Under the pieces are notes generated by a model, which made no database searches, was not told the origin of the DNA, and saw only the letters and a program-made list of their open reading frames with translations. This document shows, one piece after another, positions 1,695 through 58,715 of a DNA stretch of 64,000 bases; the first letter of the stretch is position 1, and the number at the start of each line of letters is the position of its first letter. Origin of the DNA: Gammaproteobacteria bacterium (lineage in GTDB: Bacteria; Pseudomonadota; Gammaproteobacteria; Eutrophobiales; Eutrophobiaceae); the NCBI GenBank assembly GCA_965248145.1, contig OZ252091.1, forward strand, positions 3,218,082-3,282,081, given 5' to 3'. The translations under genes and the position numbers were made by a program.

Positions 1695-4004
1695 TCAGAA
1701 GTCTCTGCGGACTTCCAGACCAAAGCTGCGCGGCCGATTTGTGACAATACGCGGACGCCCGGGTTTCTCAGCCGCTATGGAACGATTATCAGACAGGTTG
1801 GCGTGCTCATTCGTCACATTTTTGGCGAATAAGGCTACGTCCCAACTGCCCGCCTGAAAAGCGCCGACACGAAAGTTAAGCAACTCGAATGAATCCCTCA
1901 CCCGCGGCGGCAATGTTCCACTGTTGTTTCCACTGAGACTGTCATCGTAATAGGAATAATCGCCGCGTAGGTAGCCTTCCCAGCCGGAAATCAGTGGGAA
2001 GCTGTATTCGGCGGCGGCATTAAAGGTAATTTTCGGTACCTGGGTAACACGATCTCCTTCAGTCGTACCTGCCAGGAGGTTGCCTTTTGTGATCTTGGCA
2101 TCGGTGTAGCCAAACCCCATGGAAACATTCAAACCTTCCATCGGGAGCGCCTGGAATTCAACTTCAACGCCTTTATTTTCCGCCGAACCGGAATTTGCTC
2201 CGTATTGAAATCCACAGGCCAGCCGATTCGTTTGCAACGTGTCGCTCCAACTGATATTGAAGGCCGAGACGTTTAAATTGACGCGCTCATCAAACCAGGA
2301 GGATTTCATACCCAACTCAAAATTCCACAACGAGTCTGAATCGAAAGTGGCTACATCTTCACTGGTAATACCCAAGTCGGCAAGTTCACCGGCACAAAGA
2401 AGCTCCGGTACAGACAGGTTAACGCCGCCAACGCGAAAACCTTTTGTAGCAGAACCGTAAATCAACATGTCTTCAGTGACGTCGAGTTCCATCAGGACTT
2501 TGGGCACGACCCTGGAACTGCTTCGTGAGGTAGGTGGCAGTATTGTCATACCACTATTGACAAAACCACCCCGATCAGAGGTGAAATCGATGGTCGTATC
2601 AGACCAGCGGGCGCCGGCGGTCAATCTCAAGTTTTCACTCAACCTTAAGGTCAGCTCTCCGAAGACCGCAATCTCTTCCGTATCCTGGTCGTCGTATGTG
2701 TAAAATACCAGGTCAGAACCCAGTAGACCGGGGGGCACCGGCACCGGAAATCCAGGGACAATACCCGTTAATATCGCGTTGAGCGTACCGGTGAATTGTG
2801 CATTGATACCCGGTGCAAAGGAAGGCGGATATTCAAGAATATGTTCCCTGTCCTCATAGAAGACACCCAGCGTCAAAGCCAGGCCGGCAACAGGCAGGTC
2901 GCCGAAATCGGTAATCAAACGAGTTTCATGCACGAATGAGTTGTCCTCTTCCGTTTCAGATAGCGGACTTGGTAAATGGGGCTCAGGCAACCCACTTGCT
3001 GCAAACAACAACCCGTCCAGCGTGCCGGTCTGGTCCTCGAACTCTTTGACTTCCCGATCAAACTTTGCCGTGGTAGAGACTATCTCACCGAATCCGGTGT
3101 CGATATTGATTGTCACGCTACCCAGCCACCATTCTTCCTCACCGGGTTCTTCAATATTATTATGCCGGGGCACTGTAAAATTGCCCGGAGAGATATCGGC
3201 AAGAGGCAGGTTATCCGAATCCGTGCGTTGATACATGAATCGGGGTTTTATAGTGATGCGATCAGTGGCATTCCAGATGAAAGAAACAGCGCCGCCATAA
3301 AATTCATCATCGTCAACGTCTTCCACCGTGTCGAACGCAGGCCTGTTGGAACCGGCGATATGCACCCGGTCAAACACGCCGGAATTCTGCGCATAGTACA
3401 ATATCCCGCGCATACCCAGCACGCCTTCCACGATGGGCGCGTTAAAGCTACCGTCAACCTGCCAGTTGATATCACCCTCTTTGACGTCCGAAACCGACGT
3501 GCGCAGGTAGCCGTCAAACTCGTCTGCATTCGCCTGTTTCGTGATGACGCGAACAGTACCGCCCATGGAGCGCGCCCCGTAGAGAGTGCCTTGCGGACCG
3601 CGCAATACCTCAACCCGCGATATATCCGAGACGCGCGGATTCATGTATTCCGGAACCGGGATGTCATCGATATAAAAGCCCGTTGCGCCGACAACCCCGC
3701 CACCGGCAACGCCGCGGATTGCCGGAGAACCAGAGTTGAAGCGGCCATCGGCCTCGTTACTGAAACCGAGGTTGGGAATTTTAACGCCATAGTCGAATAT
3801 GCCTTCAGCGCCGATACGTTGCAATTCGATTTCGCCGATGGCCGTTATGGACATGGGCGTATCCTGCAAACTTGTCTCACGTTTGGTTGCGGTGACGATA
3901 ATCTCCTCGATGGCCTGCGCCCATGCCTGGCTTGATACAATCAAACATGGCAAGAATAAAATCACCCATCGTCGGGTATAAGTCATGATATTTTTTCTAC
4001 TCAT
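1695..4004 (-). CDS. TonB-dependent outer membrane receptor
   Basis: 769 aa with a signal peptide and a plug domain (IEEIIVTATKRETSLQDTPMSI). The barrel is long and Gly/Tyr-rich. The C-terminal beta-strand ends ...GLEVRRDF. Confidence 0.85.
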   Translation of the reverse strand: MSRKNIMTYTRRWVILFLPCLIVSSQAWAQAIEEIIVTATKRETSLQDTPMSITAIGEIELQRIGAEGIFDYGVKIPNLGFSNEADGRFNSGSPAIRGVAGGGVVGATGFYIDDIPVPEYMNPRVSDISRVEVLRGPQGTLYGARSMGGTVRVITKQANADEFDGYLRTSVSDVKEGDINWQVDGSFNAPIVEGVLGMRGILYYAQNSGVFDRVHIAGSNRPAFDTVEDVDDDEFYGGAVSFIWNATDRITIKPRFMYQRTDSDNLPLADISPGNFTVPRHNNIEEPGEEEWWLGSVTINIDTGFGEIVSTTAKFDREVKEFEDQTGTLDGLLFAASGLPEPHLPSPLSETEEDNSFVHETRLITDFGDLPVAGLALTLGVFYEDREHILEYPPSFAPGINAQFTGTLNAILTGIVPGFPVPVPPGLLGSDLVFYTYDDQDTEEIAVFGELTLRLSENLRLTAGARWSDTTIDFTSDRGGFVNSGMTILPPTSRSSSRVVPKVLMELDVTEDMLIYGSATKGFRVGGVNLSVPELLCAGELADLGITSEDVATFDSDSLWNFELGMKSSWFDERVNLNVSAFNISWSDTLQTNRLACGFQYGANSGSAENKGVEVEFQALPMEGLNVSMGFGYTDAKITKGNLLAGTTEGDRVTQVPKITFNAAAEYSFPLISGWEGYLRGDYSYYDDSLSGNNSGTLPPRVRDSFELLNFRVGAFQAGSWDVALFAKNVTNEHANLSDNRSIAAEKPGRPRIVTNRPRSFGLEVRRDF

Positions 4005-10701: not shown

Positions 10702-10732
10702 CCATACAAACCCCAAGGGGTCGCTTTCCCCC

Positions 10733-10886
10733 GTCATTCCGGCGAATGCCGGAATCCAGTGAGATAGAGAGTCGCCTCCGGCGACACGTTATTAGACTGG
10801 ATTCCGGGTCAAGCCCGGAATGACGGGGGGGGTGGCTTTCGCAGGAATGACGGGGGGCACATCTGCTATTCCCGCGGAAGCGGGAA
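10733..10886. repeat. Cluster of nested-palindrome MITE-like elements (GTCATTCC...GGAATGAC family; contains dRS3-like ATTCCC-N8-GGGAAT)
   Basis: One full copy at 10733-10826, of the form GTCATTCC-GGCGAATGCC-GGAATCCAGTG...GTCGCCTCCGGCGACAC...CTGGATTCCGGGTCAAGCCCGGAATGACG. Partial copies follow (GGAATGACGG; ATTCCCGCGGAAGCGGGAAT). The cluster sits between the convergent 3' ends of the FAD oxidase and ccmG. Confidence 0.8.
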
Positions 10887-14869: not shown

Positions 14870-15017
14870 AAGCGTTAAATTTTAATTACCGATAACCACA
14901 AGTAGTTATTTTTATATACTGATCAATATATAAGTAAATTTTCTTTAGCGATAACCACAAACCGTTACTTTTATAATTTCTAATTGATAAAATTTTTTAT
15001 TTACCGATAACCACAGG
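14870..15017. repeat. Three approximately 60-bp-spaced copies of CGATAACCACA in an AT-rich ccmC-ccmB spacer; the third copy forms the ccmB 3' end
   Basis: Copies ttaccgataaccacaag (about 14890), tagcgataaccacaaacc (about 14946) and ttaccgataaccacagg (15001-15017). The last encodes the ccmB C-terminus SCGYR followed by the stop codon. Confidence 0.7.
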
Positions 15018-15678
15018 ATAGCCTGAGGGCAAAACCGATGACAAACGGACTCAGTGTGGCTGCCAGCGCCAATAAACCGGCCAGCCACAATAATTGCCCC
15101 TGGTAAGGCTGTTGGTTCGCCGCCGCTGTAACAGCATGACTACCGAAGATCAATACCGGAACATACAAGGGCAGCACCAATAGAGAAAGCAAAGCGCCCG
15201 CCTGCCTGATACCAATTGTCAGCGCCACGCCGATGGTCCCGACCATGTTCAAATACGGTACGCCCAGCAGCAGAGAAATGAATAAAACCTTGATGACTTG
15301 AATATCCAGGTGTAATAAAAACCCCAATACTGGCGCCATAACAATCAACGGCAGACCGGTGACACACCATTGCGCAATTATTCTGGCTGCTATCAATAAC
15401 GCTCTCGGATACGGGCTTAATAACATCTGCTCTATCGAACCGTCCTGAAAATCAGCTCGATACAGGCTTTGTAATGACAACAAGACAGCTAACAGGCTTG
15501 CCACCCAGATTACGCCGGGGCCGATTTTTTGCAGGACCAACGGCTCCGGGCTGATGGCAAGGGGAAACAGGCTTGCCACTATCACAAAGAAAATCAACGG
15601 CAAAAAAGTGTCGGCGCGCTGCCGGTACGCAACTTTCAGGTCACGAACCAACATGGCGGCAAACGTGTTTGTATACAT
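15001..15678 (-). CDS. ccmB: heme exporter permease CcmB
   Basis: 225-aa six-TM ABC permease of the CcmB family. Operon position supports the call. Confidence 0.85.
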   Translation of the reverse strand: MYTNTFAAMLVRDLKVAYRQRADTFLPLIFFVIVASLFPLAISPEPLVLQKIGPGVIWVASLLAVLLSLQSLYRADFQDGSIEQMLLSPYPRALLIAARIIAQWCVTGLPLIVMAPVLGFLLHLDIQVIKVLFISLLLGVPYLNMVGTIGVALTIGIRQAGALLSLLVLPLYVPVLIFGSHAVTAAANQQPYQGQLLWLAGLLALAATLSPFVIGFALRLSCGYR

Positions 15679-15681
15679 TGT

Positions 15682-15770
15682 TTGGTTTTTAGTTTCTGGT
15701 TTTTAGTTTCTGGTTTTTGGTTTTTGGTTTTTAGTGACCAAAAACTAACAACTAAAAACTAATCCGTTTC
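15682..15770. repeat. AAACTAAAAACTA / TAGTTTTTAGTTT repeat element (tandem plus inverted) at the ccmA-ccmB junction
   Basis: ggtttttagtttc x2, tggtttttgg x2, then the inverted gaccaaaaactaacaactaaaaactaa. Related copies occur at 6355-6380, 35741-35816 and 39131-39204. Confidence 0.75.
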
Positions 15771-22580: not shown

Positions 22581-22790
22581 CTTCAGGCGCACGCACACTT
22601 TTGAATCGAGGTATTACCATTCCGCGCAAGCGGAGCAGTGGCACAGAGCTTGTCCCTGCATGTTGTAAGCAGGGGGATGTGCCGTTTACGGACCAAAGGA
22701 CGGAAATCCAGTGGACAAACCTTCCTTATTTTATAGTGAAATAAACTGATGCGCCTTTCCTGTAATGAAGTTCGCGTGCGCTAGTCACGG

Positions 22791-22858
22791 GGTCAGAGTC
22801 ACGGGGTCAAGTCTTTGATTTTGGTCAGAGTCACGGGGTCAAGTCTTTGATTTTTGAT
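22791..22858. repeat. tandem direct repeat ggtcagagtcacggggtcaagtctttgatttt x2
   Basis: Two adjacent copies of about 33 bp followed by a partial inverted copy (aaatcaaagacctgagaccacgac). This is the left edge of the TA island. Confidence 0.7.
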
Positions 22859-25469: not shown

Positions 25470-25650
25470 CGAGATCAGGGTCGGACCTACATATCTGGGG
25501 TCGGACCTACATATCTGTTTGTTTTAATTCATTTTACATCTCACTAACATCTGTTATCTCTCCTTAAAGCACCCATTTTACTATCCAAATGGGGACTGTA
25601 AGACCGGGCACTTTCTTGATAGTACCACCCTATAATCAGGGCTATTATGG
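25470..25650. repeat. approximately 180-bp repeat, copy A (begins with a duplicated gggtcggacctacatatctg)
   Basis: Highly similar to 26275-26460. Shared blocks are ctgtttgttttaattcakttta.atct..t..ta..tctgttat.tctccttaaagc..ccatttt.ctatc.aaatggg.a.tgtaagac...gg...tt.cttgatag.a...t.cataatcagggctatt. Confidence 0.8.
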
Positions 25651-26460: not shown

Positions 26461-26600
26461 GTACTAATACAATAAATATATTGTAATTTATTAAATTACT
26501 ATTAATATATTGTTTTCTAGTTATTTAACTATTAATATATTGTTTTTTGGTTATTTAACTATTAATATGATGTTTCTATTAATCAACATCTGTAATAATT

Positions 26601-35740: not shown

Positions 35741-35816
35741 TTGCTAGTTATCAGTTAGTTTTTAGAAACGGACTGGGGCAGTATCAACTAAAAACTAAAA
35801 ACCAGAAACTAAAAAC
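35741..35816. repeat. AAACTAAAAACTA-family repeat in the divergent hcr/marR promoter region
   Basis: agttagtttttagaaac ... aactaaaaactaaaaaccagaaactaaaaacc. Confidence 0.7.
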
Positions 35817-37637: not shown

Positions 37638-39134
37638 ATGACATTCAAACTACCCGACAGGGACGAATTGAAAACCATTGCCGGTTCCATGGGATTGACT
37701 GTGGATGACACACTGGCGGAAACCATGCTTGAACAACTGGCAATGTTCGGCGGCGGCTATCAATTCATGGATCAACTGGAAGATAACCTGCCGGAAATCC
37801 AATATCCTCACAGGAGTTATCGACCCCCGACCGGGGAAGAAAACCCACTGGGCGCCTGGTACGTCAGGACTGACCTGAAAGGCAGGGACGCGGGACCGCT
37901 CAAGGACAGGACGGTTGCCGTCAAGGATAATATCTTTGTCGCAAATGTTCCCATGATGAACGGCGCTTCGATCCTGGAAGGTTTCATACCGGACTTCGAT
38001 GCCACCGTCGTTACCCGGTTGCTGGATGCCGGCGCTGAGATTACCGGCAAGGCGGTATGTGAATTTCTTTGTGTTTCCGGCGGCAGCGCCACAGCCAGTT
38101 CCGGCGTTGTCAGCAACCCGCATGATCACGATTACTCTGCCGGCGGTTCTTCCTCAGGCAGCGCTGCGCTGGTCGCCAACGGTGACGTGGATATGGCTTT
38201 GGGCTGCGACCAGGCCGGTTCGGTGCGCATTCCGTCGAGTTTCTGTGCTGTCTACGGTATGAAGGCCACTCACGGCCTGCTCCCCTACACGGGCATCATG
38301 GGCATGGAGGCCATGTTGGACCATGTCGGCCCCATGACGACAAACGTGGCCGATAACGCCCTGCTGCTGGAAGTCCTGGCGGGTTACGACGGGATGGACA
38401 GCCGCCAACGCCAATTACGAGTGCATAAATACACTGAGGCGCTCGGTGAGGATATCAGGGGAATGAAAATCGCCGTGGTCAAAGAGGGCTTTGGTCATCC
38501 CCTGTCGGAACCCGGGGTTGATCATTGTGTGCGTGACGCGGCAAGTCAATTCGCCGAGATCGGCGCGGAGGTGGCTGAAGTATCCATCCCCATGCACCTG
38601 GATGGCGTCCCTCTCTGGGGCAGTATTATCACTGACGGGCTTTGGGATACCATGCGCCATAACGGTCTCGCCGTAAACACCAACGGCTTTAACTCGCCGG
38701 CGTTGGAAAAATTCATGTCCGGCTGGCAGGATAAATTCGACCGGTTTCCCGTCAACCTGCACCTGATCCTGGTGCTGGGCAAGTACCTGGAGAAATATCA
38801 GGGCAAGTATTACGCCAAAGCAAAAAATCACCTGCCGAAACTGGCCAAGGCCTATAACGATGTCTTGCAGGATCATGACCTGTTACTGATGCCGACGACG
38901 TTGATGCAACCGCAAAAGAATCCGGCGCCTGACTCAGACCCTACCGAAAATATTATATTCATGGCGTTTAACACGGTACTCAATACCTGTCAGTTCGATA
39001 TTACCGGCCACCCGGCGATGTCGCTGCCGTGCGGCCGGCGCAACGGCCTGCCCGTAGGCATGATGCTGGTAGGCAAACACTTTGACGAACCGGCTATCTA
39101 CCGGGCTGCCTACGGGTTTGAACAGTCTTGTTAG
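37638..39134 (+). CDS. amidase (amidase-signature family)
   Basis: 498 aa. The AS signature GGSSSGSAALVANG and the Ser-cisSer-Lys triad context are present. Confidence 0.8.
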   Translation: MTFKLPDRDELKTIAGSMGLTVDDTLAETMLEQLAMFGGGYQFMDQLEDNLPEIQYPHRSYRPPTGEENPLGAWYVRTDLKGRDAGPLKDRTVAVKDNIFVANVPMMNGASILEGFIPDFDATVVTRLLDAGAEITGKAVCEFLCVSGGSATASSGVVSNPHDHDYSAGGSSSGSAALVANGDVDMALGCDQAGSVRIPSSFCAVYGMKATHGLLPYTGIMGMEAMLDHVGPMTTNVADNALLLEVLAGYDGMDSRQRQLRVHKYTEALGEDIRGMKIAVVKEGFGHPLSEPGVDHCVRDAASQFAEIGAEVAEVSIPMHLDGVPLWGSIITDGLWDTMRHNGLAVNTNGFNSPALEKFMSGWQDKFDRFPVNLHLILVLGKYLEKYQGKYYAKAKNHLPKLAKAYNDVLQDHDLLLMPTTLMQPQKNPAPDSDPTENIIFMAFNTVLNTCQFDITGHPAMSLPCGRRNGLPVGMMLVGKHFDEPAIYRAAYGFEQSC

Positions 39135-39204
39135 TTTCTGGTTTCCAGTTTTTAGTTGTTAGTGGTTTTTAGAAACTGACAACTAAAAACTAACAACTAA
39201 TAAC
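39131..39204. repeat. AAACTAAAAACTA-family repeat (direct plus inverted) between amidase and AOR
   Basis: ttagtttctggtttccagtttttagttgttagtggtttttagaaactgacaactaaaaactaacaactaa. Confidence 0.7.
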
Positions 39205-39255
39205 CAGCATTTAATGATTTATAATAGGTAATTTTTCCGGGGCAACAATATATAT

Positions 39256-47798: not shown

Positions 47799-47851
47799 AA
47801 GGTGTCGCCCCCTGCTCAACACCATGCTGGGGCAGGCTCCGGCGACTCCTT
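47799..47851. repeat. 53-bp perfect direct repeat, left copy (aaggtgtcgccccctgctcaacaccatgctggggcaggctccggcgactcctt)
   Basis: Identical to 48906-48958. The pair brackets the Rpn pseudogene. Confidence 0.85.
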
Positions 47852-47854
47852 ATA

Positions 47855-48884
47855 TTATCGGATTAACCCCGCGTCGCTAAGCTGCTCAGGGCTAAGACCC
47901 GTGATTTCACTGACCTCTTGCAGGGAATAATCGTTCTGCAACATAGCGCGGGCGCTTTCAATTCTACCTTCTGCTCTGCCTTCTGCTTTGCCCTCTGCCC
48001 TGCCTTTTGCTTCGCCCTCTGCTCTGCCTTGCTCTCTACTCACCAACATATTCGTGTTGTAGTCCAACTCGCCCTTGCGACGCATCTCTTCAATACTTAA
48101 CAACTGCGGGTCTATCGACAGGGTCCGCAGATCCTTCAGGGTCTCCTTCATGATCGGATTTTTGTCTACTATAGTACGCATGGCAGCCTCGTCTAACGAT
48201 GATGTGTGTTTGATAATATATAACCATAGTCCCAGGTTGTCATCTATTTCTTCCAGTGTCCGGGTAAACTTGGGTAGTTCAAAAAACACCATCTGGAACT
48301 TGTCCGTCAGTTGTATATCAGGATGGTCTTTCTCCAGTATCAGGAAATGACTCTGGTAGTCCGGCAGGTCGAGCAGGTTGAAGTTCAGGAAGTTGATGGA
48401 ATAGGTGTTCTGCAGGGTCGTGTAGTTCTCGCCCTGGTTGAGTTGACCGGTATACAGCCTGGCCCCAGTAGTACAAGGCCCGGGCGCTGTAGAAGTGCTG
48501 TTCCAGGGCCTGCATCTCGATATTGAACAGGTCGCCGGCATGGCTTCGGGCCTTGATATCCAGTATTACCGATTTGTCGATCAGGTGCTCTTTGAGTATT
48601 TCAGCCGGCAGCAGGGTGAGTGCTTCTATCTGTTGTTCTCCTTCAAACCTCAGAGCCGCATTGAGCAGGTCTATCAGGGAAGCGGTGGAGCGCGTAAACA
48701 GGGCGCGAAAGACAAAATCATAGGTGAGGGCTAACAGCCTGGGATGGTCCATCATGAGATACCTGTATGTCCTATAAGTACGGGCTGAAACCCGGCAGCC
48801 GGTCCGGCGCAGTGATGGAGTCGGTCTTACAACCTTTCCACCACCACTGCGAACCAGTTTACCTGCCTGTTTTGCAAAAGTCAC
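47855..48884 (-). pseudogene. Rpn-family (YhgA-like, PD-(D/E)XK) recombination-promoting nuclease / transposase-like gene, frameshifted
   Basis: The N-terminal part is in ORF 48318-48884 (KSVILDIKARSHAGDLFNIEMQ). The C-terminal part is in the overlapping ORF 47855-48541, in another frame (EGEAKGRAEGKAEGRAEG...ITGLSPEQL, the typical Rpn C-terminus). Confidence 0.7.
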
Positions 48885-48905
48885 TTATTTGTTGACAACC
48901 TTTGG

Positions 48906-48958
48906 CAAGGTGTCGCCCCCTGCTCAACACCATGCTGGGGCAGGCTCCGGCGACTCCT
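48906..48958. repeat. 53-bp perfect direct repeat, right copy
   Basis: Identical to 47799-47851. Confidence 0.85.
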
Positions 48959-49125
48959 TGCCCACTGAGTTAACGAACCAAAAAACGCAATCACATCGCA
49001 GTTGCACTCAGCGCCTGTCTGTGTCATCATCCTGCTATTGTTTCATTACAGGAATATTATTGTGAATATAAAACAGTTAACCGGCGTTCCCATGGCACCT
49101 TTAACATCCACAGATGGTGACCTTT

Positions 49126-49134
49126 ATGGTATAA
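49126..49134 (+). promoter_or_regulatory. extended -10 promoter element TGgTATAAT upstream of the giant autotransporter gene
   Basis: tggtataat at 49126-49134. No convincing -35 element at 17-bp spacing. Confidence 0.4.
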
Positions 49135-49142
49135 TGGCGGGT

Positions 49143-49191
49143 AGCCGACAGCCGACAGCCGACAGCCGACAGCCGACAGCCGACAGCCGAG
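49143..49191 (+). repeat. heptanucleotide simple sequence repeat (AGCCGAC)x6 plus AGCCGAG in the leader of the autotransporter gene
   Basis: A perfect 7-bp tandem tract lies 28 bp upstream of ATG 49219 and immediately downstream of the TATAAT box. The copy number was deduced from the translation of ORF 49002-49265 (SRQPTADSRQPTADSRA). Confidence 0.85.
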
Positions 49192-49218
49192 CTATGTCTG
49201 GATTCGCCGGGGCGCGCC

Positions 49219-52200
49219 ATGCCTCAGCTAGCGGGCGCCTCCGGGCTGCGAGAATGCCCACCTGAATCTTTCTACTCCGCGTCCCCATCGCGCGGGGATT
49301 TCCCTCAGACCTCATCGTTCCGCCGCATCGCGGCGGCCTCGCGTGGGCTGCTTCGGGCAGCGGCTACGCTCGCGTTCGTCGCGTCCATCGCCATCCCGGC
49401 GTCGGCTCAGGCCGCCGAACTGGTCAGCAACTTCGACCAGACCGGCGACACGAGTAACGGTGTGAGTAGGGCAGTCGCGCAACAGTTCACGACGGGTACG
49501 AACTCGGGCGGCTACACGCTGACCAACATCAAGTTCAAGTCCGAGGACACCGATGGCGATTCCTACTCGGTGTCGGTGTGCACGGTTCTCGCTTCGGGAT
49601 TTCCCGACGAGACAGACTGCACGGCGCTCACCGCGCCGAGCGGCACTAATGCCTTCGCGGCCGGGACCCACACTTTCGCCGCGCCGGACGCCACCACGCT
49701 CAAGAAGGAGACGAAATACACCGCGCTCATCACCATCCCAGACACAGAAAATGTCACCCTTGACGCGACAACCTCCAATGGCGAGGACACCGGCGGCGCC
49801 GCCGGATGGACGATCGCAGATGCATACGATTTCAAGAACTCTTTTAATGTGTGGGGTACAGCCCCCCCCCCATTTGGCTCGGAGATTCGCATCGAGATCA
49901 ACGGGGAGACCCCACCGACAGTCTCCTCGGTAGCGGTCACCTCGACGCCGAGCGCGGCCAGCGATACCTACGGGGCGGGCGAGGAGATCGAGTTCACCGT
50001 CACCTTTTCGGAGGCGGTCGAGGTGAGCGCGGGCCAACCGCATTTCGAGTTCGCGCTCGGCAACTCGGGCAGCCCATCCGTGGACAAGGATGCGACCTAC
50101 CAGAGTGGCTCGGGCTCCACGGCGCTGGTGTTCGCCTACACGGTGGTGGCCGCCGACATGGACGACAACGGCATCTGGGTCGGAGATCAGTCGCGTACCC
50201 TGATGCTCGACACCGGCGAATACATCCGCGCCGTGGACGACCAGACCTCGGCCACGCTCACCCACGCCGCACTAAGCACGCAATCCGGCCACAAGGTGGA
50301 CGGCAGCCTGATGGTTACCAACAACGCCCCGGTATTCCCGGCCGAGGCGTCGACGCGCGAGTTGACGGAGAACGTGGCGGCGAACGTGAATGTCGGCGCC
50401 CCGGTGAGGGCGACCGACGGCGAAGGCGACACGCTGACCTATTCGTTCGGCGGGACGGACGTGGGCAAGTTCAATTTCAATGCGGCGACGCAACAGATCA
50501 CGACCAAGTCGGGCCAGACTTACGACTACGAGACGGATGCGTCCTACACGGTGACGGTCACGGCGACCGACGGCACGACGCCGACCACCGTCACCGTGAC
50601 CATCAATGTGATCGACCTGCCCGCGATCAGCATCGCGCCAGAGCCAGGGAAGGCGCGGCTGCTGATTACGGCGGGAGTGGTCTCGGTCGATCTGTCCGGG
50701 TCGCCGCGGCCCTCTGGCAACCTTACGATCAACTTTTCCGCGCAGCAGGACCATGACTGGTTCTCGAGTTCCTCTCTTACGGGTAGTACGCACTACGACA
50801 GACCCGACGACGAATATGGGCAGCCCAGTTTCACTTTCCTAGCGGACGCGCCGGTAGAGAGCGGCGACTTCACGGTTACGCTGCAGCCGGGCGACGGCTA
50901 CGAGATCGGCACGGCGGCGGCGACCGTCGAGATCGTCGCGGCGGACCCGGTGATCACGGTGCGCGCGGCGGAGGCGGCCTACAGTTTCGGGGAAGGCGAC
51001 GGCACGGTGACGGTGACGCTCACGGCGGAGACCATCGCCGATGCGCCGAAGCCGAGAAATAGCATCTTTGTGAACTGGTCAACTACGGCGGGCACGGCGA
51101 CCGGCGGCGGCACGGATTTCGAGAACGGCAACGGCGAAGTCCTGTTCGGCTCGGGGAACTTCACGCAACAGGGCACCCGCTGGGTGGCGACCAAGGATAT
51201 CGAGGTCATCCTGGTGGACGACGCCGTGAAGGAAGAGACCGAACAGTTCCAGGTGACGCTCACGAGGCACTCCAGCCTGCACCCGCTGGTCAAGCTGGCG
51301 AACGTGGACAGGTCGCTGTGCGCGCCGGGCGTCAATTGCGGCACGACGGTCAACATCCTCGACAACGAACCCGGCGTGACGATCTCGAAGACGGCACTGG
51401 ACATCCTCGAAGGCGGCACCGGCAGCTACACGGTGGTGCTCGATTCTGAGCCGACGGCGACGGTGACGGTCACGCCGTCGCGCACCAGCGGCGATACGGA
51501 CATCACCGTGAGCGGCGCCCTCACCTTCACCACAACCACCTGGAGTGTGGCGCAGACGGTGACGGTCAGCGCGGCCGAGGATGATTCGGATTCGGATGTC
51601 GATAGGGCCGTGATCGGCCACGCGGTGAGCGGCGGCAACTACGCCTCGGTCACGGCCGCTTCGGTGGCCGTCACCGCGGCTGACAACGATGCGCCCGACG
51701 AGTCCGCCACCGGCAAGCCGACGATTTCAGGGACGGCGCAGGTCGGCCAGACGCTGATCGCGGCGAAGGGCAGCATCGACGACCCAAACGGGCTGACCAA
51801 GGCCGACAACGACGAGACGGGCTTCGCCTACACCTACCAGTGGATCCGGGTGGATTCCGACGGCACGTCGAACCCGATGAATGTCGGGACCGACTCCGAC
51901 GCCTACCCGCTGGTGGCGGCGGACGAGGACAAGCAGATCCGGGTCAGGGTGAGCTTCGTGGACGACAATGGCTACGCGGAGGCGCGGACGAGCGACCCGT
52001 ATCCGTCCTCGGACACGGTCCTGCCGTCTTCGGCGGTGAGCCTGTTGTTGTCGCCTGCATCGATCCGCGAGAACGGCGGCACGACCAGGATCAGGGCAAG
52101 GCTGAACGTGGAGTCGAGTGCCGAGACGACGGTCACGGTATCGGTCGAGCCGGTCCCGCCGGCGGTTGCCGGGGACTACGAGCTGAGCGCCAACACGGTG

Positions 52201-55200
52201 CTGACGATTCCCGTCGGGCGGACCTCCAGCACGGGCCTGGTGACGCTGACGGCGGTGAACAACGATGTGGACGCGGACGACAAGACGGTCATCATCCGGG
52301 GTGTTGCGGAGAACAGCGCGGGCGTTGGCGCTCCGGCGGAGCAGACGCTGACGATTGAGGACGACGATCAGGGCGTGCGGCTGAGCCCGACGTCGCTGAT
52401 GATCGATGAGGGCCGCAGCAAGGGCTACACGGTGGTGTTGGGGTCGCGACCCACGGGGTCGGTGACGGTGACGCCGCAGGTCACGGGCGGCATGGTGACG
52501 GTGTCGGGGCCGCTCGTGTTCACGCGGGACAACTGGGACGAGCCGCAGACGGTGACGGTGACGGCGGGCCAGGACGAGGACGAGGAGGACGAGACGGTCC
52601 AGGTGACGCACCTGGTGTCGGGCGCGGATTACGGCGGCTTCACCGCGGGCAGCGTGCGGGTGATGGTGAGCGACGACGACGGCGGCACGGGCGTGCTGGA
52701 GGTGGGTGTGTATGACGGCTCGGCCGGGGCCGGCGTCAAGGACCCGCCGCCGCGGGTGCATTTCGGGCAGCGGTTCCGGCTCGACCTGGTGTGGTCGCAT
52801 CTGCGCACCAAGCATTGGGCCAAGCCGCAGGGCGCGATCGGGCCGACCCGGGCGATCCGGGTGGTCGGCGGGACGGTGCGCCCGGTGCAGGGGCGGTTCA
52901 GCGTGTCCAGCCACGGCTGGGACCAGTCGCGCCTGACGCTCGAGGTCACGCCTGTGCCGAGCGCAGACAGCGACGACGTGACGCTGGTCCTGGAGCCGTT
53001 GGATTGCAGCAGCAATGACCCGAAGGCGCTGTGCTCGCTCGACCGCGGGAGGTGGACCGGCCTGGCGAAGCGGGTGCGCTTCACGGTGCGGGGCATCACC
53101 GGCGCACCGGTGATGGCGGCGGCGGAGCTGGACCTGACGGTGACCCCGCAGGAACGGCGCGGCAAGGATTCCTTCCTGGTGAGCTTCGACGCCGACGAGG
53201 AGGGGACGCGCTTCCGGCTGCAGATGCAGGAGGCCGGCGGGGACTGGTCGAGGAAGAGCGAGTGGACCGGGGCGATGCGCTCGGAGAACCAGCATCGGGT
53301 GACGGTCGACGGGGTGTCGCACGATGACGCCTACCAGTTCCGGGTGCGCTGGGAGAACCGCTTCGGGAATGGGCCGTGGGCGCAAGCGAGCACGGCCGGC
53401 GCGGCGCCGGCGGCGCCGACGGGGCTCAGGCTGACGCCGATGTACCAGGACAAGAGTCTGGCGCTCGCCTGGACCCCGGTGACGCAGGCCGGGGTGCGGA
53501 TCGAGCGGTTCCAGTACCGGATCGACCGAACCCGTAGCGAGGAACTGGTGATCCTTTCGGACACGGGGCCGATGCAATACCGGGGCAATTGGGTCGACAT
53601 CCCGAACAGCGGACGAGGCAACGCGAACTACCGTTCGTGGACGATCGGGGGACTCGCGAACATGTGGGCCGCCAGGATCCGCGTGCGTGCAGTGAACGAG
53701 TCAGGCCGTGCGGGCACGCCCTCAGCGGAAGCGGTGGCGCCGCTCGACGTGCCGCGGGTGGCGGACATCTCGATGGCGTCGGACCCCGGTGCCGACGGGT
53801 ACTACACGTACGGAAACAAGATCGGGATCAACGTGCGGCTGAGCCGTCCGGTCCGCATCCCGGGTAACGATCAGAGACCGTCACTGGACGTCGAGATCGG
53901 CGGCGGCGTGTACAGCATGGGGCTGGTGTCGATCCGGCAGTCGGTGGCGCATGAACTGATCGGACAGGCGCCGTGGTCGGGCGACGTGCTGTTGTTCGAG
54001 CACAGCCTTGGTACAGGTGACGTGGACCACAACGGGATCCGGGTACCGGCCAGCGCGCTCAAAGGCAATGGAGGACGGCTGCTCGACCTGACACCCGCGG
54101 GAGAGGGCCAGTTGGCGGACCTCGCCGTGAGCACGGCAAAAACCTTCCCGGCGCACAGGGTGAACACGGTCCCGCCGCGCATCGTGCGCATGACCTGGCA
54201 GCAGAACCTGGACGCGAACGGCGTGGTGCGGGGCGCCGAGGTGCGCATCCACTACGACCGCGACCTCGACCCGAATTCGAGACTCAGTCTCGACTGGAAT
54301 CAGTACCGGGTCGAGTATTCAGAGTCGCGGGCGCTCGGGCGCGACGTGACGGGCCTGAGCATCGGCGACGCCACCGACGACGGTGTCGATAACCCCCGGA
54401 CGGTGCGGCTGGTCCTGAAGCGGGTGGTCCATGGTTCGGGCGCCACCCCGCACAACAGCCCGCAGCTGAATGAGACCGTGTGGGTGACCTATACGGGAGT
54501 GGGAGTGAGTGGGAACAGCGGGCGGCGATTCGGCCCGTTCGATACGCTGGGGAACCCTGTCGCGGGCTTCACCCGGAGGGTGGCGGAGCACGTGACCGCG
54601 ACGCAGGCAGCGTTGGCGGCGGAGTTCCGGAACGTGCCGGCCGGGCACAACAGCCCGTTCACCTTCGAGGTGCATTTCAGCGAGGAGGTCACGCTCACCG
54701 AAGAGATGCTGCTGAACTCGGTCTTCACGGTGACGAATGGCACGGTGTCGGCCGCGCGGCGGCTCAATCCGCCGAGCAACATCGCCTGGGAGATCACGGT
54801 CGATTCATCCTCGGACGAAGCGGTGACGGTGGTGCTGCCGAAGACGACGGACTGCACGGCGGCGGGCGCGATCTGCACCTGGGACAACCGCCCGCTGTCG
54901 GCGGAGATCTCGGCGACGGTGGCTGGCCCGCCGACCGTGGTGACGAGTGTGGCGGCGACCAACGCACTGACGGCGGAGCTGCGGGACCTGCCGGAGAGCC
55001 ACGACGGGAGCGCGTTCACCTTCGAACTGCGCTTCAGCGAGGCATTCCCGATCAGCTACCTGACGCTGCGTGACCGTGCGTTCACGGTGACCAACGGACA
55101 TGTGACCGGGGCGAGACGCCTGGACAATCCGCACCACGAGTCCGCCGGTATGGAACCCAACCGGGAGTGGGAGATCACGGTCGAGCCCGGCACGGGCGCC

Positions 55201-58200
55201 GAAGAGGTGTCGATTATCCTCCCTGAAACGACCGACTGCACCGCGACCGGCGCCATCTGCACCGCGGACGACCGTGCACTGTCGGTGGGGGTAGCGGTGT
55301 TCATCGGGGCGGACTCGGAGGACGAGGAGGCGGTAGTGGTGGATGAGCCGACAGTGGAGCCGACACCGAACGCGACCGGCGCCCCGGTGATTACGGGCAC
55401 GACGCAGGTGGGTAAGACTCTGACCGCGGCGAAGGGCAGCATTGCCGACACCGACGGGCTGACCAGGGCCGACGCCAGCGCTACGGGCTACACCTACAGC
55501 TACCAGTGGATGCGGGTAGACGGCACGTCGAAGACCGGCATCACCGGCGCGACGTCAAGCGCCTACACGCTGGCCGCCGCCGATGAGGGTAAGAAGATCA
55601 AGGTCAAGGCGAGCTTCCGGGACGACGCCGGCACTGACGAGGCGCGCACCAGTGCGGCCACCGGGACGGTGGCGGCTGCGCCTCCGCCTCCGCCGCCGCC
55701 GCTCACGGCAGCGTTCTCCGACGTGCCGTCGACACATGACGGCTCAACGGCGTTCGTCATGCACTTCCGCCTCAGCGAGGAGCCGCACGACCTAAGCTAT
55801 GTCACGGTGCGCGACTCCGTGTTCGACGTGACCGGCGGGCGCATCGAGCGCGCCAAGCGGCTGACGCAGGGCAGTAACCAGGGCTGGGCCCTGCGGGTGG
55901 CGCCGTCCGGCGACGGCGACGTGACCGTGCGAGTGAAGAACACCACCGCGTGCACGAGCGGGCCGAAACTGTGTAGCGAAGACGGGCGCATGCTCGCAGG
56001 CGGTCTTCAGGTAAGTATCGAAGGCCCACCACCGCCGGCGCTGTCGGTGGCGGATGCGACAGTGCAAGAGGCCGCGGGGGCGACACTCGCCTTCGCAGTC
56101 ACCCTGGACCGGACGCCCAACACCGCGGTGACGGTCGACTACGCCACTGCGGACGGGACCGGGACCAGGCCCGCGAACGCGGGCACGGACTATACCGCAA
56201 CCAGTGGCACGCTCACCTTCGCCAGCGGGGAGAGCAGCAAGACCGTCTCGGTCGCCGTGCTTGATGACAGCCACGATGAGGGTGAGGAGACCATGTCCCT
56301 GACCTTGTCGAACCCGTCCGGCGCCAGTATCGCTGATGCCACGGCAACCGGGACCATCACCAACACCGATGCCATGCCGCTGGCCTGGCTGTCCCGCTTT
56401 GGCCGCACCGTGGGGACGCATGTAATGACCATGGTGGACGAGCGTATGCTGGCGGCCTCGCAGCAGGCGTCCCACCTGACGTTGAATGGCCGACAGTTGC
56501 AGTGGGGTACGCCGGGGCAGGCGGACCATGGCCTGTCCGACCGCGCACGGGCGTTACTCGGCAACTGGACCCGGGACCGGCAGTCGCTGGAGACCCTGCT
56601 GAGCGGGAACGTAGGCGGAAGCCCGCGCGAAGTCCTGTCCCGCAGTTCGTTCTATTGGAGTAATGTGCCCGTCCCCGGGTCGGATACAGGACAAGGAGTC
56701 GCCTCCGGCGACACAGTATCTGACTGGATGCCGGGTCAAGCCCGGCATGACGAAGGTGGTGCAGCCGGACCTGAGCCGCTCTGGCCGGACATGGGTCAAT
56801 CCCAAGATGGCGAAAGCAGCACTCCGTCATTCCCGCGAAAGCGGGAATCCAGTGAACAAACCGTCGCCGCAGGCGACACCTTATTCGACTGGACTCCGGG
56901 TCAAGCCCGGCATGACGAAGGTGGTGCAGCCGGACCTGAGCCGCTCTGGCCGGACATGGGTCAAGCCCAAGATGGTGAAAGCAGCACTCCGTCATTCCCG
57001 CGAACGCGGGAATCCAGTGGACAAACCGTCGCCTCCGGCGACACAGTATCTGACTGGATGCCGGGTCAAGCCCGGCATGACGAAGGTGGCGCAGCCGAGC
57101 CTGAGCCGGTCTGGCCGGGCGCAGCCGAGGCAGACACCGGGCCGCGCTGGTCGGTCTGGGGCCGCGGCATGATGACGGGCTTCAACGGCCAGGATGGCGA
57201 TGTGTCGCTCAACGGCGACGTGTTGACCGGCCTGCTGGCCGCAGACTACAGCCACGGCCGGCTGCTGGCCGGGGTGTCCCTGTCCTACAGTGACGGGCAC
57301 GGCAGCTACAGCCAACCCGGCGACCCACAGGGCAAGGTCAAGAGCACTCTCACCGGGGTCCATCCATACCTGCGTTACGAAGTGAACCAGAGCCTGTCGG
57401 TATGGGGCGTACTCGGCTACGGCCAGGGTGCAGTGACACTGACCCCGGGCAGTGCCGGGGACGCTGGGGACGGACTTAAGTCCGTCCCCGGAGAGGTCAT
57501 CGAGACCGACATGAGCATGGGCATGGGCGCCTTCGGGGCGCGCGGCACGCTGTTGTCCGGGAACGGCCTCAACCTGGCGCTGAAGTCGGACGTCCTGCTG
57601 GTGCGTACCGACGCACAGGACACCGACGGACTGGCGTCCCTGGATGCAGTGGACACCAGCCGCCTGCGCCTGGCCCTGGAGGGCTCGCGCATGCTCCAAT
57701 GGGCGAACGGGCGCAGCCTGCTGCCGGCCCTGGAACTGGGCCTGCGCTATGACGACGGCGATGCCGAGACCGGGTTCGGCGCCGAACTGGGTGGCCGGGT
57801 GCAATACCAGGATATGACCCTGGGCCTGACCGTGGCGACCCATGCCCGGGTCCTGCTCGCCCACGAGGACAGTGGCTATGAGGAATGGGGACTGGGCGGC
57901 TCGCTCAGCCTCGACCCCGGCGCCGCCGGACTGGGGGCGTCCCTGGACCTGCGCTCCTCCTGGGGCGCCGTGGCCAGCGGCATAGACGGGTTGTGGTCAC
58001 AACAGACCACCGCGGGTCTCGCGCGGGGCGGCATGGAGAGTAATCGTGCAATGCAGTTCGAGACCCGGTTGGGGTACGGCCTGGAGGTGCCCGGCGGGCG
58101 TAACCTCCTCACCCCGTACGGTGGCCTCACCCTGGCCGGCCCCAACTCCCGTGTGTACCGCCTGGGTGGCGTATTCAGACGCGGGGAGTTACTTGAGCTG

Positions 58201-58281
58201 AGCCTGGACGCCGAGCGCCGGGAAAACCTCGGCGCCCTGCCCGACCACGGCCTGATGCTGCGTGTTTCCATGCCGTGGTAG
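49219..58281 (+). CDS. giant (3020 aa) autotransporter adhesin
   Basis: The roughly 64-aa N-terminal region ends in AFVASIAIPASAQA. The passenger contains cadherin-like repeats, an FN3-like region, and repeated Cys-pair (TTDCTA(T/A)GAICT) and Calx-beta-like (VTVTP...SG.L.FT...W...QTVTV.A..D) modules. The linker carries AMPLAWLSRFGRT. The C-terminal roughly 300-aa beta-barrel ends ...RVSMPW. GC is about 65% against about 50% for the flanks. Confidence 0.8.
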   Translation: MPQLAGASGLRECPPESFYSASPSRGDFPQTSSFRRIAAASRGLLRAAATLAFVASIAIPASAQAAELVSNFDQTGDTSNGVSRAVAQQFTTGTNSGGYTLTNIKFKSEDTDGDSYSVSVCTVLASGFPDETDCTALTAPSGTNAFAAGTHTFAAPDATTLKKETKYTALITIPDTENVTLDATTSNGEDTGGAAGWTIADAYDFKNSFNVWGTAPPPFGSEIRIEINGETPPTVSSVAVTSTPSAASDTYGAGEEIEFTVTFSEAVEVSAGQPHFEFALGNSGSPSVDKDATYQSGSGSTALVFAYTVVAADMDDNGIWVGDQSRTLMLDTGEYIRAVDDQTSATLTHAALSTQSGHKVDGSLMVTNNAPVFPAEASTRELTENVAANVNVGAPVRATDGEGDTLTYSFGGTDVGKFNFNAATQQITTKSGQTYDYETDASYTVTVTATDGTTPTTVTVTINVIDLPAISIAPEPGKARLLITAGVVSVDLSGSPRPSGNLTINFSAQQDHDWFSSSSLTGSTHYDRPDDEYGQPSFTFLADAPVESGDFTVTLQPGDGYEIGTAAATVEIVAADPVITVRAAEAAYSFGEGDGTVTVTLTAETIADAPKPRNSIFVNWSTTAGTATGGGTDFENGNGEVLFGSGNFTQQGTRWVATKDIEVILVDDAVKEETEQFQVTLTRHSSLHPLVKLANVDRSLCAPGVNCGTTVNILDNEPGVTISKTALDILEGGTGSYTVVLDSEPTATVTVTPSRTSGDTDITVSGALTFTTTTWSVAQTVTVSAAEDDSDSDVDRAVIGHAVSGGNYASVTAASVAVTAADNDAPDESATGKPTISGTAQVGQTLIAAKGSIDDPNGLTKADNDETGFAYTYQWIRVDSDGTSNPMNVGTDSDAYPLVAADEDKQIRVRVSFVDDNGYAEARTSDPYPSSDTVLPSSAVSLLLSPASIRENGGTTRIRARLNVESSAETTVTVSVEPVPPAVAGDYELSANTVLTIPVGRTSSTGLVTLTAVNNDVDADDKTVIIRGVAENSAGVGAPAEQTLTIEDDDQGVRLSPTSLMIDEGRSKGYTVVLGSRPTGSVTVTPQVTGGMVTVSGPLVFTRDNWDEPQTVTVTAGQDEDEEDETVQVTHLVSGADYGGFTAGSVRVMVSDDDGGTGVLEVGVYDGSAGAGVKDPPPRVHFGQRFRLDLVWSHLRTKHWAKPQGAIGPTRAIRVVGGTVRPVQGRFSVSSHGWDQSRLTLEVTPVPSADSDDVTLVLEPLDCSSNDPKALCSLDRGRWTGLAKRVRFTVRGITGAPVMAAAELDLTVTPQERRGKDSFLVSFDADEEGTRFRLQMQEAGGDWSRKSEWTGAMRSENQHRVTVDGVSHDDAYQFRVRWENRFGNGPWAQASTAGAAPAAPTGLRLTPMYQDKSLALAWTPVTQAGVRIERFQYRIDRTRSEELVILSDTGPMQYRGNWVDIPNSGRGNANYRSWTIGGLANMWAARIRVRAVNESGRAGTPSAEAVAPLDVPRVADISMASDPGADGYYTYGNKIGINVRLSRPVRIPGNDQRPSLDVEIGGGVYSMGLVSIRQSVAHELIGQAPWSGDVLLFEHSLGTGDVDHNGIRVPASALKGNGGRLLDLTPAGEGQLADLAVSTAKTFPAHRVNTVPPRIVRMTWQQNLDANGVVRGAEVRIHYDRDLDPNSRLSLDWNQYRVEYSESRALGRDVTGLSIGDATDDGVDNPRTVRLVLKRVVHGSGATPHNSPQLNETVWVTYTGVGVSGNSGRRFGPFDTLGNPVAGFTRRVAEHVTATQAALAAEFRNVPAGHNSPFTFEVHFSEEVTLTEEMLLNSVFTVTNGTVSAARRLNPPSNIAWEITVDSSSDEAVTVVLPKTTDCTAAGAICTWDNRPLSAEISATVAGPPTVVTSVAATNALTAELRDLPESHDGSAFTFELRFSEAFPISYLTLRDRAFTVTNGHVTGARRLDNPHHESAGMEPNREWEITVEPGTGAEEVSIILPETTDCTATGAICTADDRALSVGVAVFIGADSEDEEAVVVDEPTVEPTPNATGAPVITGTTQVGKTLTAAKGSIADTDGLTRADASATGYTYSYQWMRVDGTSKTGITGATSSAYTLAAADEGKKIKVKASFRDDAGTDEARTSAATGTVAAAPPPPPPPLTAAFSDVPSTHDGSTAFVMHFRLSEEPHDLSYVTVRDSVFDVTGGRIERAKRLTQGSNQGWALRVAPSGDGDVTVRVKNTTACTSGPKLCSEDGRMLAGGLQVSIEGPPPPALSVADATVQEAAGATLAFAVTLDRTPNTAVTVDYATADGTGTRPANAGTDYTATSGTLTFASGESSKTVSVAVLDDSHDEGEETMSLTLSNPSGASIADATATGTITNTDAMPLAWLSRFGRTVGTHVMTMVDERMLAASQQASHLTLNGRQLQWGTPGQADHGLSDRARALLGNWTRDRQSLETLLSGNVGGSPREVLSRSSFYWSNVPVPGSDTGQGVASGDTVSDWMPGQARHDEGGAAGPEPLWPDMGQSQDGESSTPSFPRKRESSEQTVAAGDTLFDWTPGQARHDEGGAAGPEPLWPDMGQAQDGESSTPSFPRTRESSGQTVASGDTVSDWMPGQARHDEGGAAEPEPVWPGAAEADTGPRWSVWGRGMMTGFNGQDGDVSLNGDVLTGLLAADYSHGRLLAGVSLSYSDGHGSYSQPGDPQGKVKSTLTGVHPYLRYEVNQSLSVWGVLGYGQGAVTLTPGSAGDAGDGLKSVPGEVIETDMSMGMGAFGARGTLLSGNGLNLALKSDVLLVRTDAQDTDGLASLDAVDTSRLRLALEGSRMLQWANGRSLLPALELGLRYDDGDAETGFGAELGGRVQYQDMTLGLTVATHARVLLAHEDSGYEEWGLGGSLSLDPGAAGLGASLDLRSSWGAVASGIDGLWSQQTTAGLARGGMESNRAMQFETRLGYGLEVPGGRNLLTPYGGLTLAGPNSRVYRLGGVFRRGELLELSLDAERRENLGALPDHGLMLRVSMPW
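56698..57115 (+). repeat. about 2.5 in-frame tandem copies of a 165-nt unit containing the GTCATTCC...GGAATGAC MITE, inside the autotransporter linker
   Basis: The unit starts at 56698, 56863 and 57028, a period of exactly 165 nt (55 codons). Each unit contains gtcgcc(tcc/gca)ggcgacac ... ctgga.tccgggtcaagcccggcatgacg ... gtcattcccgcgaa(a/c)gcgggaatccagtg. Each unit is about 85% identical to the intergenic element at 10733-10826. Confidence 0.85.
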
Positions 58282-58376: not shown

Positions 58377-58715
58377 CTAACGAGGATCAATCGGCGTAAT
58401 CGCTCCGAGTGCCGTCTCGACGGCCGCTCCCGCCCGCAGGCAGCGGGCTTCCGCAAAAGGTGGGCCGATGATCTGCACCGCCTGTGGCAGCCCTTCAGCT
58501 ACACCGGTAGGTACCACGGATACGGGCAGTCCCAACAGATTGATTGCGACCACCATTCGCATGTCGATACGATTGATACAAGCCTCAATGGCATCACTGG
58601 CACTGGCATCGCCATTGCGAATGACGGCGGCAAGGTCCAGGGCACTCAGTTCCCACAGGTCTGCCATAGGTGATTCCCCGTTCATTTTCAAGTTAGGGAT
58701 GCGAGTAGCATCCAA
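58377..58715 (-). pseudogene. C-terminal fragment of an amidase-signature family enzyme (remnant)
   Basis: 112 aa ending as amidase C-termini do (VAINLLGLPVSVVPTGVAEGLPQAVQIIGPPFAEARCLRAGAAVE). The roughly 350 aa that should lie upstream are absent. GC is higher than in the neighbouring AT-rich DNA. Confidence 0.5.

Follow-up and report, generated by a model that had tools for sequence, protein, structure and literature searches.

The repeat and its setting

We analysed a 64-kb stretch of DNA from an uncultured gammaproteobacterium (contig OZ252091.1 of assembly GCA_965248145.1; hereafter the window), focusing on a repeat of the heptanucleotide AGCCGAC that lies between a promoter-like element and the start codon of a gene for a giant, adhesin-like surface protein of 3020 amino acids (aa). 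The window sequence was read directly, and Tandem Repeats Finder (TRF) was used for repeat arrays. On the plus strand the order is TCCACA, a 17-nt spacer, TGgTATAAT, GGCGGGT, (AGCCGAC)n, 14 nt, the block GCCGGGGCGCGCC and the ATG. The features are listed below; the haplotypes that some of the lines mention are natural versions of the locus, described in the next section.

49107–49112, plus strand: candidate -35 hexamer TCCACA, from a promoter scan; invariant in five haplotypes of the locus, TCCGCA in a second locus (L158)
49127–49135, plus strand: extended -10 element TGgTATAAT (TGGTATAAT), from sequence and promoter scan; hexamer at 49130–49135
49134–49136, plus strand: upstream ATG, proposed as a fusable start and rejected here; overlaps the -10 hexamer and is out of frame in six haplotypes
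49136–49142, plus strand: GC-rich discriminator GGCGGGT; GGCGGG invariant in six haplotypes
49143–49191, plus strand: heptanucleotide microsatellite (AGCCGAC)6 AGCCGAG, from sequence, TRF and haplotype polymorphism
49192–49218, plus strand: remaining leader, with the conserved block GCCGGGGCGCGCC at 49206–49218
49194–49265, plus strand: small upstream open reading frame (ORF) of 24 codons in frame 0, overlapping the adhesin start; read from sequence
49219–58281, plus strand: gene for the 3020-aa surface protein, from ORF calling, Pfam and homologues

The tract is a perfect (AGCCGAC)6 followed by AGCCGA, and position 49191 is G instead of the unit's C, making the seventh unit AGCCGAG. TRF reports (AGCCGAC)x6.86 at 49143–49190 (period 7, 6.9 copies, 100% matches, score 96). 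Both results agree with the initial annotation of this stretch, which had described a perfect 7-bp repeat of about 6.9 copies upstream of the 3020-aa gene and a tract-to-ATG distance of 28 nt (49191–49218), likewise confirmed. Double units of AGCCGAC were observed 6 times, compared to 0.03 expected from 100 dinucleotide-preserving shuffles of the window, and the array is the only one of its unit within the 64 kb. Local GC content steps from 43% to 72% exactly at the tract, which is free of stop codons in all three frames, each of them reading SRQPTAD. A full-text literature search found no description of the repeat sequence, and Rfam at gathering thresholds gave no known RNA family in the window.

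The promoter scan matched TCCACA, 17 nt and TATAAT, with the upstream TG, at 10 of 12 positions; the 1.1-kb region holds 3 promoter-like matches against 0.6 expected. The TGgTATAAT motif that had been placed directly before the tract is real, although its coordinates were off by one (49127–49135, not 49126–49134). No intrinsic terminator was found in 48500–49600. From the usual distance between a -10 element and the start site, transcription is predicted to begin at about 49142–49143. At the other end of the leader, the GCCGGGGCGCGCC block contains a palindrome, GGCGCGCC (49211–49218), and the leader's only Shine-Dalgarno-like G-run (GGGG, 49209–49212); a good Shine-Dalgarno sequence is lacking at both the upstream ATG (49134) and the adhesin ATG (49219), as had been noted before.

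Natural haplotypes and the reading frame

Six haplotypes were compared: the window, four other versions of the same locus and one second locus (L158) in another genome. The same-locus haplotypes span three metagenome assemblies (ERZ25766727, ERZ25766605 and ERZ26167216), and only homologue searches and cluster look-ups led to the additional haplotypes. Looking up exact proteins, for the adhesin and its two upstream neighbours, yielded the source genome only, and scanning the invariant flank GCCGAGCTATGTCTGGATTCGCC against JGI metagenomes gave 0 matches. The tracts, with their lengths, are:

Window (ERZ25766727, 3.77-Mb circular contig, 98x): (AGCCGAC)6 AGCCGAG, 49 nt
L007 (ERZ25766727, 5x): (AGCCGAC)4 AGCCGAT GGCCGAT GGCCGAG, 49 nt
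L157 (ERZ26167216, 6x): (AGCCGAC)5 AGCCGAT GGCCGAG, 49 nt
L155 (ERZ25766605, contig_4, 684 kb, without a coverage label): (AGCCGAC)6 CGAT GGCCGAG, 53 nt
L008 (ERZ25766727, 1x single-read contig): AGCCGAC AGCCGAG, 14 nt
L158, second locus (ERZ25766727, 12x, 1.63-Mb contig): AC (AGCCGAC)5 (AGCCGAG)3, 58 nt, 8.3 copies

No two tracts are alike, and they comprise 2, 7, 7, 7, about 7.6 and 8.3 units. L007, L155 and L157 have 0 mismatches in the upstream 512 nt, yet they carry three different tracts. An alignment of L155 with L157 over 11,676 nt shows 1 mismatch and one gap, and that gap falls within the tract. Between L008 and L007 the gap in the tract measures 35 nt and keeps the register exactly, while every other gap is 1–3 nt. 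Because the flanks are fixed and near-identical strains nevertheless differ in the tract, we take the tract to be a slippage-prone mutational hotspot that is evolving by slippage or conversion. Variant units stand in identical blocks (TGGCCGA twice, AGCCGAG three times), and such blocks, as far as the assembled haplotypes tell, are the signature of slippage or conversion in which units are copied to their neighbours. The tract has also stayed homogeneous in two loci whose flanks have diverged by 9%. Despite this turnover of units, tract lengths cluster at 7–8 units in five of six haplotypes, which suggests that the length of the leader is under some constraint and that the instability is moderate rather than amounting to free ON/OFF switching.

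The elements on either side of the tract vary far less. TATAAT and its TG are kept in all six haplotypes (as TGaTATAAT in L007, L155, L157 and L158), and the 17-nt spacer has 3 single-nucleotide polymorphisms. Both TATAATGGCGGG and GCCGGGGCGCGCC-ATG are invariant in the six, the diverged L158 included; one G of the GGGG run is missing from the single-read contig L008, and we treated this as a read error.

The haplotypes bear directly on how the tract could act. In the initial annotation, unit number was proposed as a translational ON/OFF switch in which loss of one unit or gain of two would fuse the ATG at 49134 to the adhesin ORF. This ATG exists and the frame arithmetic is right: it lies 85 nt upstream of ATG 49219, an offset of 1 modulo 3. 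The tract would not interrupt such a fusion in any frame, and ATG 49219 is itself without a good Shine-Dalgarno sequence. However, ATG 49134 is no better in that respect, and it shares two bases with the -10 hexamer TATAAT, hence lies outside a transcript made from that promoter. Since a start codon within the -10 element is upstream of the transcription start, the promoter and the fusion start are mutually exclusive ideas. The offsets from ATG 49134 to the ORF are 85, 85, 85, 89, 50 (with the one-base read error corrected) and 88 nt, none of the six a multiple of three, and the out-of-frame haplotypes include the dominant 98x genome and two others that have an intact ORF (about 3000 aa). Fusion would also add at least about 60 residues ahead of the signal peptide. 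The six haplotypes show no change in ATG 49219 or in the block that precedes it, and indels after this ATG come in threes. In frame 1 there is a stop, TAA, at 49132–49134 and no start codon before 49219. Slippage-driven fusion of ATG 49134 thus fails, and we regard such a switch as hardly credible. An intragenic frameshift repeat of the classical type was likewise rejected, as no haplotype offers a usable start codon upstream of the tract. What remains of the proposed switch is its setting, in which a variable simple sequence repeat (SSR) separates a conserved promoter-like element from the ATG of a giant surface-protein gene, and not its frame mechanism.

Translation would start at ATG 49219, which is intact in all six haplotypes. 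Indels 3' of it between the two diverged loci measure 3, 12 and 12 nt, and differences between these loci in the stretch RGD(F/S)PQTSS(F/L)RR are mostly synonymous, a pattern that fits translation from 49219. The ATG of the small ORF at 49194–49265 is missing in L158, and an in-frame ATG created by TG-variant tract units is missing from some haplotypes, so neither is essential. In L158, positions 3977–3979 read TTG exactly where the n-region of the signal peptide begins, which would give MRRAAAFFLF... there. At the corresponding positions of the window (49318–49320) the codon is TTC, not TTG, which would leave ATG 49219 as the sole available start in this lineage, with a pre-extension of 33 residues.

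The surface-protein gene and its surroundings

The window, L155 and L158 contain the ORF at full length; in the low-coverage contigs L007, L008 and L157 it is fragmented. Its N-terminus consists of the 33-aa extension followed by signal-peptide-like residues 34–65 (49318–49413), FRRIAAASRGLLRAAATLAFVASIAIPASAQA followed by AE; by inspection, FRRIAAASRGLLRAAATLAFVASIAIPASAQA reads as a typical n/h/c signal with an AQA site. Pfam identifies Calx-beta (E = 3e-26), fn3 and a sub-threshold cadherin domain. The C-terminal 343 residues match no Pfam family at E <= 0.01, and a search of this domain against PDB by sequence gave no match. The autotransporter beta-domain PF03797, by comparison, is found in 15 of 31 homologues at 43–56% identity, with a best E-value of 3e-16. 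The model of the C-terminal barrel (57250–58278) has 16 strands and in structure is most like the Omp85-type transporters CdiB, FhaC and TamA; Foldseek against PDB gave generic barrels only, with TM scores below 0.5. A model of this kind departs from the 12 strands of a type Va (classical) autotransporter. The label of autotransporter, given to this gene earlier, is verified in part: the homologues back it, the protein's own C-terminus stays below every Pfam threshold, and the modelled barrel differs from the classical 12-strand form. It may be that an unusual class of barrel is fused to a giant passenger within a family that is autotransporter-like in sequence.

The gene also varies internally. 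A module of roughly 600 bp, cadherin-like plus fn3, is present in L007 (5141–5730) and at the equivalent position of L008, two co-existing alleles, but not in the window, L155 or L157, and by this comparison the adhesin is variable by whole modules between strains within one sample. In the first approximately 190 residues after the signal peptide there is no nucleotide similarity between the window (49335–49909) and L158 (3994–4562), while the two share 97.5% identity over the other 8.4 kb, as if the N-terminal (tip) domain of the adhesin had been swapped. Ahead of the barrel, the gene contains in-frame tandem repeats of 165 bp that encode ...MPGQARHDE...SFPRKRESS... and are 85–89% similar, via the L158 copy, to an intergenic element at 10729–10832, which sits between convergent genes. 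The linker between passenger and barrel seems to have received, in frame, an insertion of a dispersed repeat rich in palindromes.

Several lines of evidence concern the origin of the gene. Its GC content is 66–69%, compared to about 50% in the flanks and genome region, and the nearest relatives of its N-terminal part outside this population are metagenome-assembled genomes (MAGs) of Gammaproteobacteria with about 70% GC. A related species (L156, with an 88% identical FAD oxidoreductase) lacks the adhesin at this site. On account of the GC jump, the GC-rich relatives and the adhesin-less site, we conclude that the gene is evidently a horizontally acquired island. Homologues of the neighbouring gene, at 63–80% identity, belong to MAGs labelled Gammaproteobacteria. 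Of the distant homologue loci L002, L003 and L004, from high-GC gammaproteobacterial MAGs, the two scanned (L002 and L004) contain no 7-bp array of at least 3 copies, which makes the tract specific to this adhesin lineage.

A unit running from a PDDEXK_2 gene to the adhesin stop (47852–58281) is shared with L158 (2542–12933) at 91–97.5% identity, and in L158 it is flanked by miaB/phoH/ybeY-like and SnoaL/Cu-oxidase genes, unlike the neighbours in the window. The recurrence of this block suggests that adhesin and Rpn-like nuclease gene move together. Other features of the gene and its surroundings are:

47799–47851, plus strand: 53-bp perfect direct repeat, left copy, just outside the unit shared with L158
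47855–48541, minus strand: Rpn-family/PDDEXK_2 nuclease-like gene, divergent from the adhesin and part of the shared unit
48907–48959, plus strand: 53-bp perfect direct repeat, right copy
56698–57118, plus strand: 2.6 tandem copies of a 165-bp repeat, in frame, before the part encoding the barrel (TRF)

The PDDEXK_2 gene region (47855–48884, minus strand) encodes 228 aa and an overlapping ORF of 188 aa in another frame, compared to 287 aa in L158, and the window copy may be frameshifted. The 53-bp repeats flank this gene, the left copy beginning right after the stop of the FAD oxidoreductase, and they may be a scar of integration or recombination. Directly after the adhesin stop, a 96-aa amidase-like fragment (58377–58667, minus strand) is probably the remnant of a gene disrupted when the island inserted.

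Elsewhere, the window carries proteobacterial genes (TonB receptors, BoxB, 4-hydroxybenzoyl-CoA reductase) and further repeats. Perfect tandem duplications of 32 bp and 20 bp and an AT-rich period-30 array lie at 22791–22854, 25478–25517 and 26498–26575, and a 54-bp element at 22634–22687 is 91% shared with L158. A cyanobacterial origin, to which the heptamer arrays of the window had pointed, was rejected in view of this proteobacterial gene content and of the HIP1 sites, which number 1 against 2.2 expected.

Possible roles of the tract and comparison with known systems

Our preferred reading is that the 5' leader of a horizontally acquired, autotransporter-like gene begins with a slippage-prone microsatellite of ~50 nt, which acts, at most, as a putative rheostat; we hold it tentatively, with a little less than even confidence. 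With transcription starting at about 49142, the tract would be transcribed and untranslated, and with translation starting at ATG 49219 it could not act as an ON/OFF switch of the reading frame. Its function, if it has one, would most likely be that of a graded rheostat working through the length of the leader. We folded the predicted leader (49142–49270) and found it less stable than its shuffles (z = +1.84), with the tract unpaired in the centroid structure and the AUG inside a predicted hairpin at about 49208–49243. On its own, (AGCCGAC)7 has a minimum free energy of -2.9 kcal/mol and ranks fifth least structured among 30 composition-matched heptamer classes. It is tempting to speculate that an unstructured, U-free, C/A-rich tract next to a hairpin-sequestered AUG could serve as a standby platform for ribosomes; alternatively, the tract might set the distance between the promoter and the GGCGCGCC palindrome.

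A number of observations weigh against the rheostat. Length-dependent occlusion of the AUG was rejected: from 0 to 12 units the mean unpaired probability of the AUG region barely changes, from 0.31 to 0.26. A hairpin like that of the Haemophilus influenzae hmw genes, described below, was rejected as well, the tract being unpaired and lacking a complementary partner arm, and its seven units are fewer than the at least 11 always seen at hmw. Tracts of exactly 49 nt are found in three of the six haplotypes, whose unit compositions all differ, and this shared length implies that slippage is not overwhelmingly fast. One length difference is 4 nt, not 7 nt. The six differing tracts, with whole-unit differences among them, are broadly the length heterogeneity among related isolates that the initial annotation had named as its own check, with the 7-bp steps only partly seen. 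Furthermore, the haplotypes come from assemblies, with coverage of 1x, 5x and 6x for three and 12x for L158, and because of low or unlabelled coverage the 4-nt and 35-nt differences may include assembly errors within the repeat. Lastly, composition-matched heptamers are about as common in viral contigs and the window holds several other 7-bp arrays, so the tract could be a neutral by-product.

That last possibility deserves weight. The tract could be a neutral microsatellite that arose at or near the 5' junction of the acquired GC-rich gene and drifts by slippage with no effect on expression. The step in GC content lies exactly at the tract, at the edge of a gene of 66–69% GC in a genome of about 50%, and the predicted accessibility of the start codon is independent of unit number. 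The heptamer itself is ordinary: (AGCCGAC)3 occurs in 7 stretches in viral contigs, where three composition-matched control heptamers occur in 5, 4 and 10, and since the controls are equally frequent, the more than 120 unrelated (AGCCGAC)4 tracts in JGI metagenomes reflect the usual microsatellite background. AGCCGAC as a special, widespread element was therefore rejected. TRF finds five arrays of period 7 in the window, which makes the genome prone to heptamer repeats. As a separate observation, a viral or prophage contig (L009, 4910–5014) contains an in-frame (AGCCGAC)15 that encodes (SRQPTAD)5 in an AT-rich gene for an acyltransferase-like membrane protein; here the heptamer has expanded in multiples of three within a coding region. 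Drift alone sits less well with a tract that has been retained, homogeneous and at the same leader position, in two loci with 9% diverged flanks, or with the 7–8 units of five haplotypes, which hint at a length constraint. Regulatory SSRs are, moreover, classically found where this tract lies, downstream of a conserved promoter and ahead of the gene for a variable surface protein (PMC12721329). We consider neutrality a real possibility, only somewhat less likely than the rheostat.

Going beyond the rheostat through leader length, the tract might be a hypermutable rheostat or a Shine-Dalgarno-independent standby or enhancer array within a mobile cassette, made up of the Rpn-like nuclease gene, promoter, leader and adhesin, that moves between sites in uncultured, probably free-living or environment-associated Gammaproteobacteria. 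We think this fuller picture unlikely. If it were true, contingency-locus logic would extend beyond pathogens adapted to a host, and the genome concerned would be one with TAACTGA-like arrays in other leaders as well. SSR-driven variation of surface adhesins is textbook knowledge for host-adapted Haemophilus, Neisseria, Helicobacter and Moraxella, and to our knowledge records of it in uncultured environmental bacteria are few. In the long-read metagenome assemblies compared here, several versions of one locus occur side by side and differ above all in a leader microsatellite, and also in adhesin modules (the N-terminal domain swap and the cadherin plus fn3 module). If the tract tunes expression, this would be natural localized hypermutation acting on an acquired surface protein in a complex community. 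If it is neutral, it carries a caution, namely that a perfect, textbook-placed and strain-polymorphic SSR is insufficient to call a phase switch.

Among known systems, intragenic frameshift SSRs, such as the tetranucleotide repeats of H. influenzae lipopolysaccharide genes and the CTCTT repeats of Neisseria opa (PMC12721329), resemble the tract in having a unit not divisible by three and in belonging to a gene for a surface structure. However, in them the repeat follows the start codon and precedes the main part of the ORF, whereas no usable upstream start is present here in any haplotype.

A second comparison is with the heptamer direct repeats, TAACTGA, of Beggiatoaceae, Cyanobacteria and Bacteroidetes, which are found in 5' leaders without a Shine-Dalgarno sequence and, in Beggiatoaceae, have been proposed to bind a factor (PMC4679880). 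By analogy, the AGCCGAC array could, as mRNA or DNA, be a binding platform for a specific factor (for example a transcription factor, S1, or a protein like Csp or Csr), and the number of units would then set its occupancy. Like the TAACTGA repeats, it is a heptamer repeat in a leader, is predicted to be unstructured as RNA and precedes a gene without a Shine-Dalgarno sequence. In addition, the window has AT-rich, imperfect arrays of the NAACTNA/NAACCNN type in three intergenic regions (15682–15762, 35785–35812 and 39131–39207), on both strands at two of the three sites, and the array at 15682–15730 abuts the ATG of an ORF (15001–15678, minus strand); these arrays resemble the TAACTGA leader repeats. 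In contrast, the AGCCGAC unit is unrelated to TAACTGA, perfect, GC-rich and one-directional, forms the only array of its kind in the window and stops 28 nt short of the start codon, where the TAACTGA repeats come within a few nt, and no candidate binding protein was identified. We consider a binding platform improbable.

A third comparison is with SSRs that alter the spacing of promoter or operator sites, such as (TAAA)n at N. meningitidis nadA (PMC2791445) and the poly-T rheostat of H. pylori sabA (PMC4081817). These too are intergenic SSRs upstream of an adhesin gene, and they give graded or phase-variable transcription. Their tracts are located upstream of or within the promoter and act through the spacing of sites, whereas the tract here is downstream of the -10 element, and the sole operator candidate is the conserved palindrome GGCGCGCC (49211–49218).

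A precedent is offered by H. influenzae hmw1A and hmw2A, in which a transcribed heptameric SSR, (5'-ATCTTTC)n, in the 5' untranslated region acts as a rheostat (PMC12721329; PMC8262952). As at hmw, the unit is 7 nt, the tract is noncoding and separates the promoter from the start codon of a secreted adhesin that is very large and allelically diverse, and the copy number of the unit varies among natural strains. At hmw there are 11–63 units, ten of which pair with a G-rich arm to form a long hairpin that is cut by RNase III (PMC12721329), whereas here there are 2–8 units, predicted to be unstructured and without a complementary arm, and, unlike at hmw, three of six haplotypes share one length. 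The hmw adhesins are also exported by two-partner secretion, while the gene described here carries its own C-terminal barrel. Taken together, the locus is of a known kind, an intergenic SSR beside an adhesin gene, here in an uncultured environmental gammaproteobacterial population.

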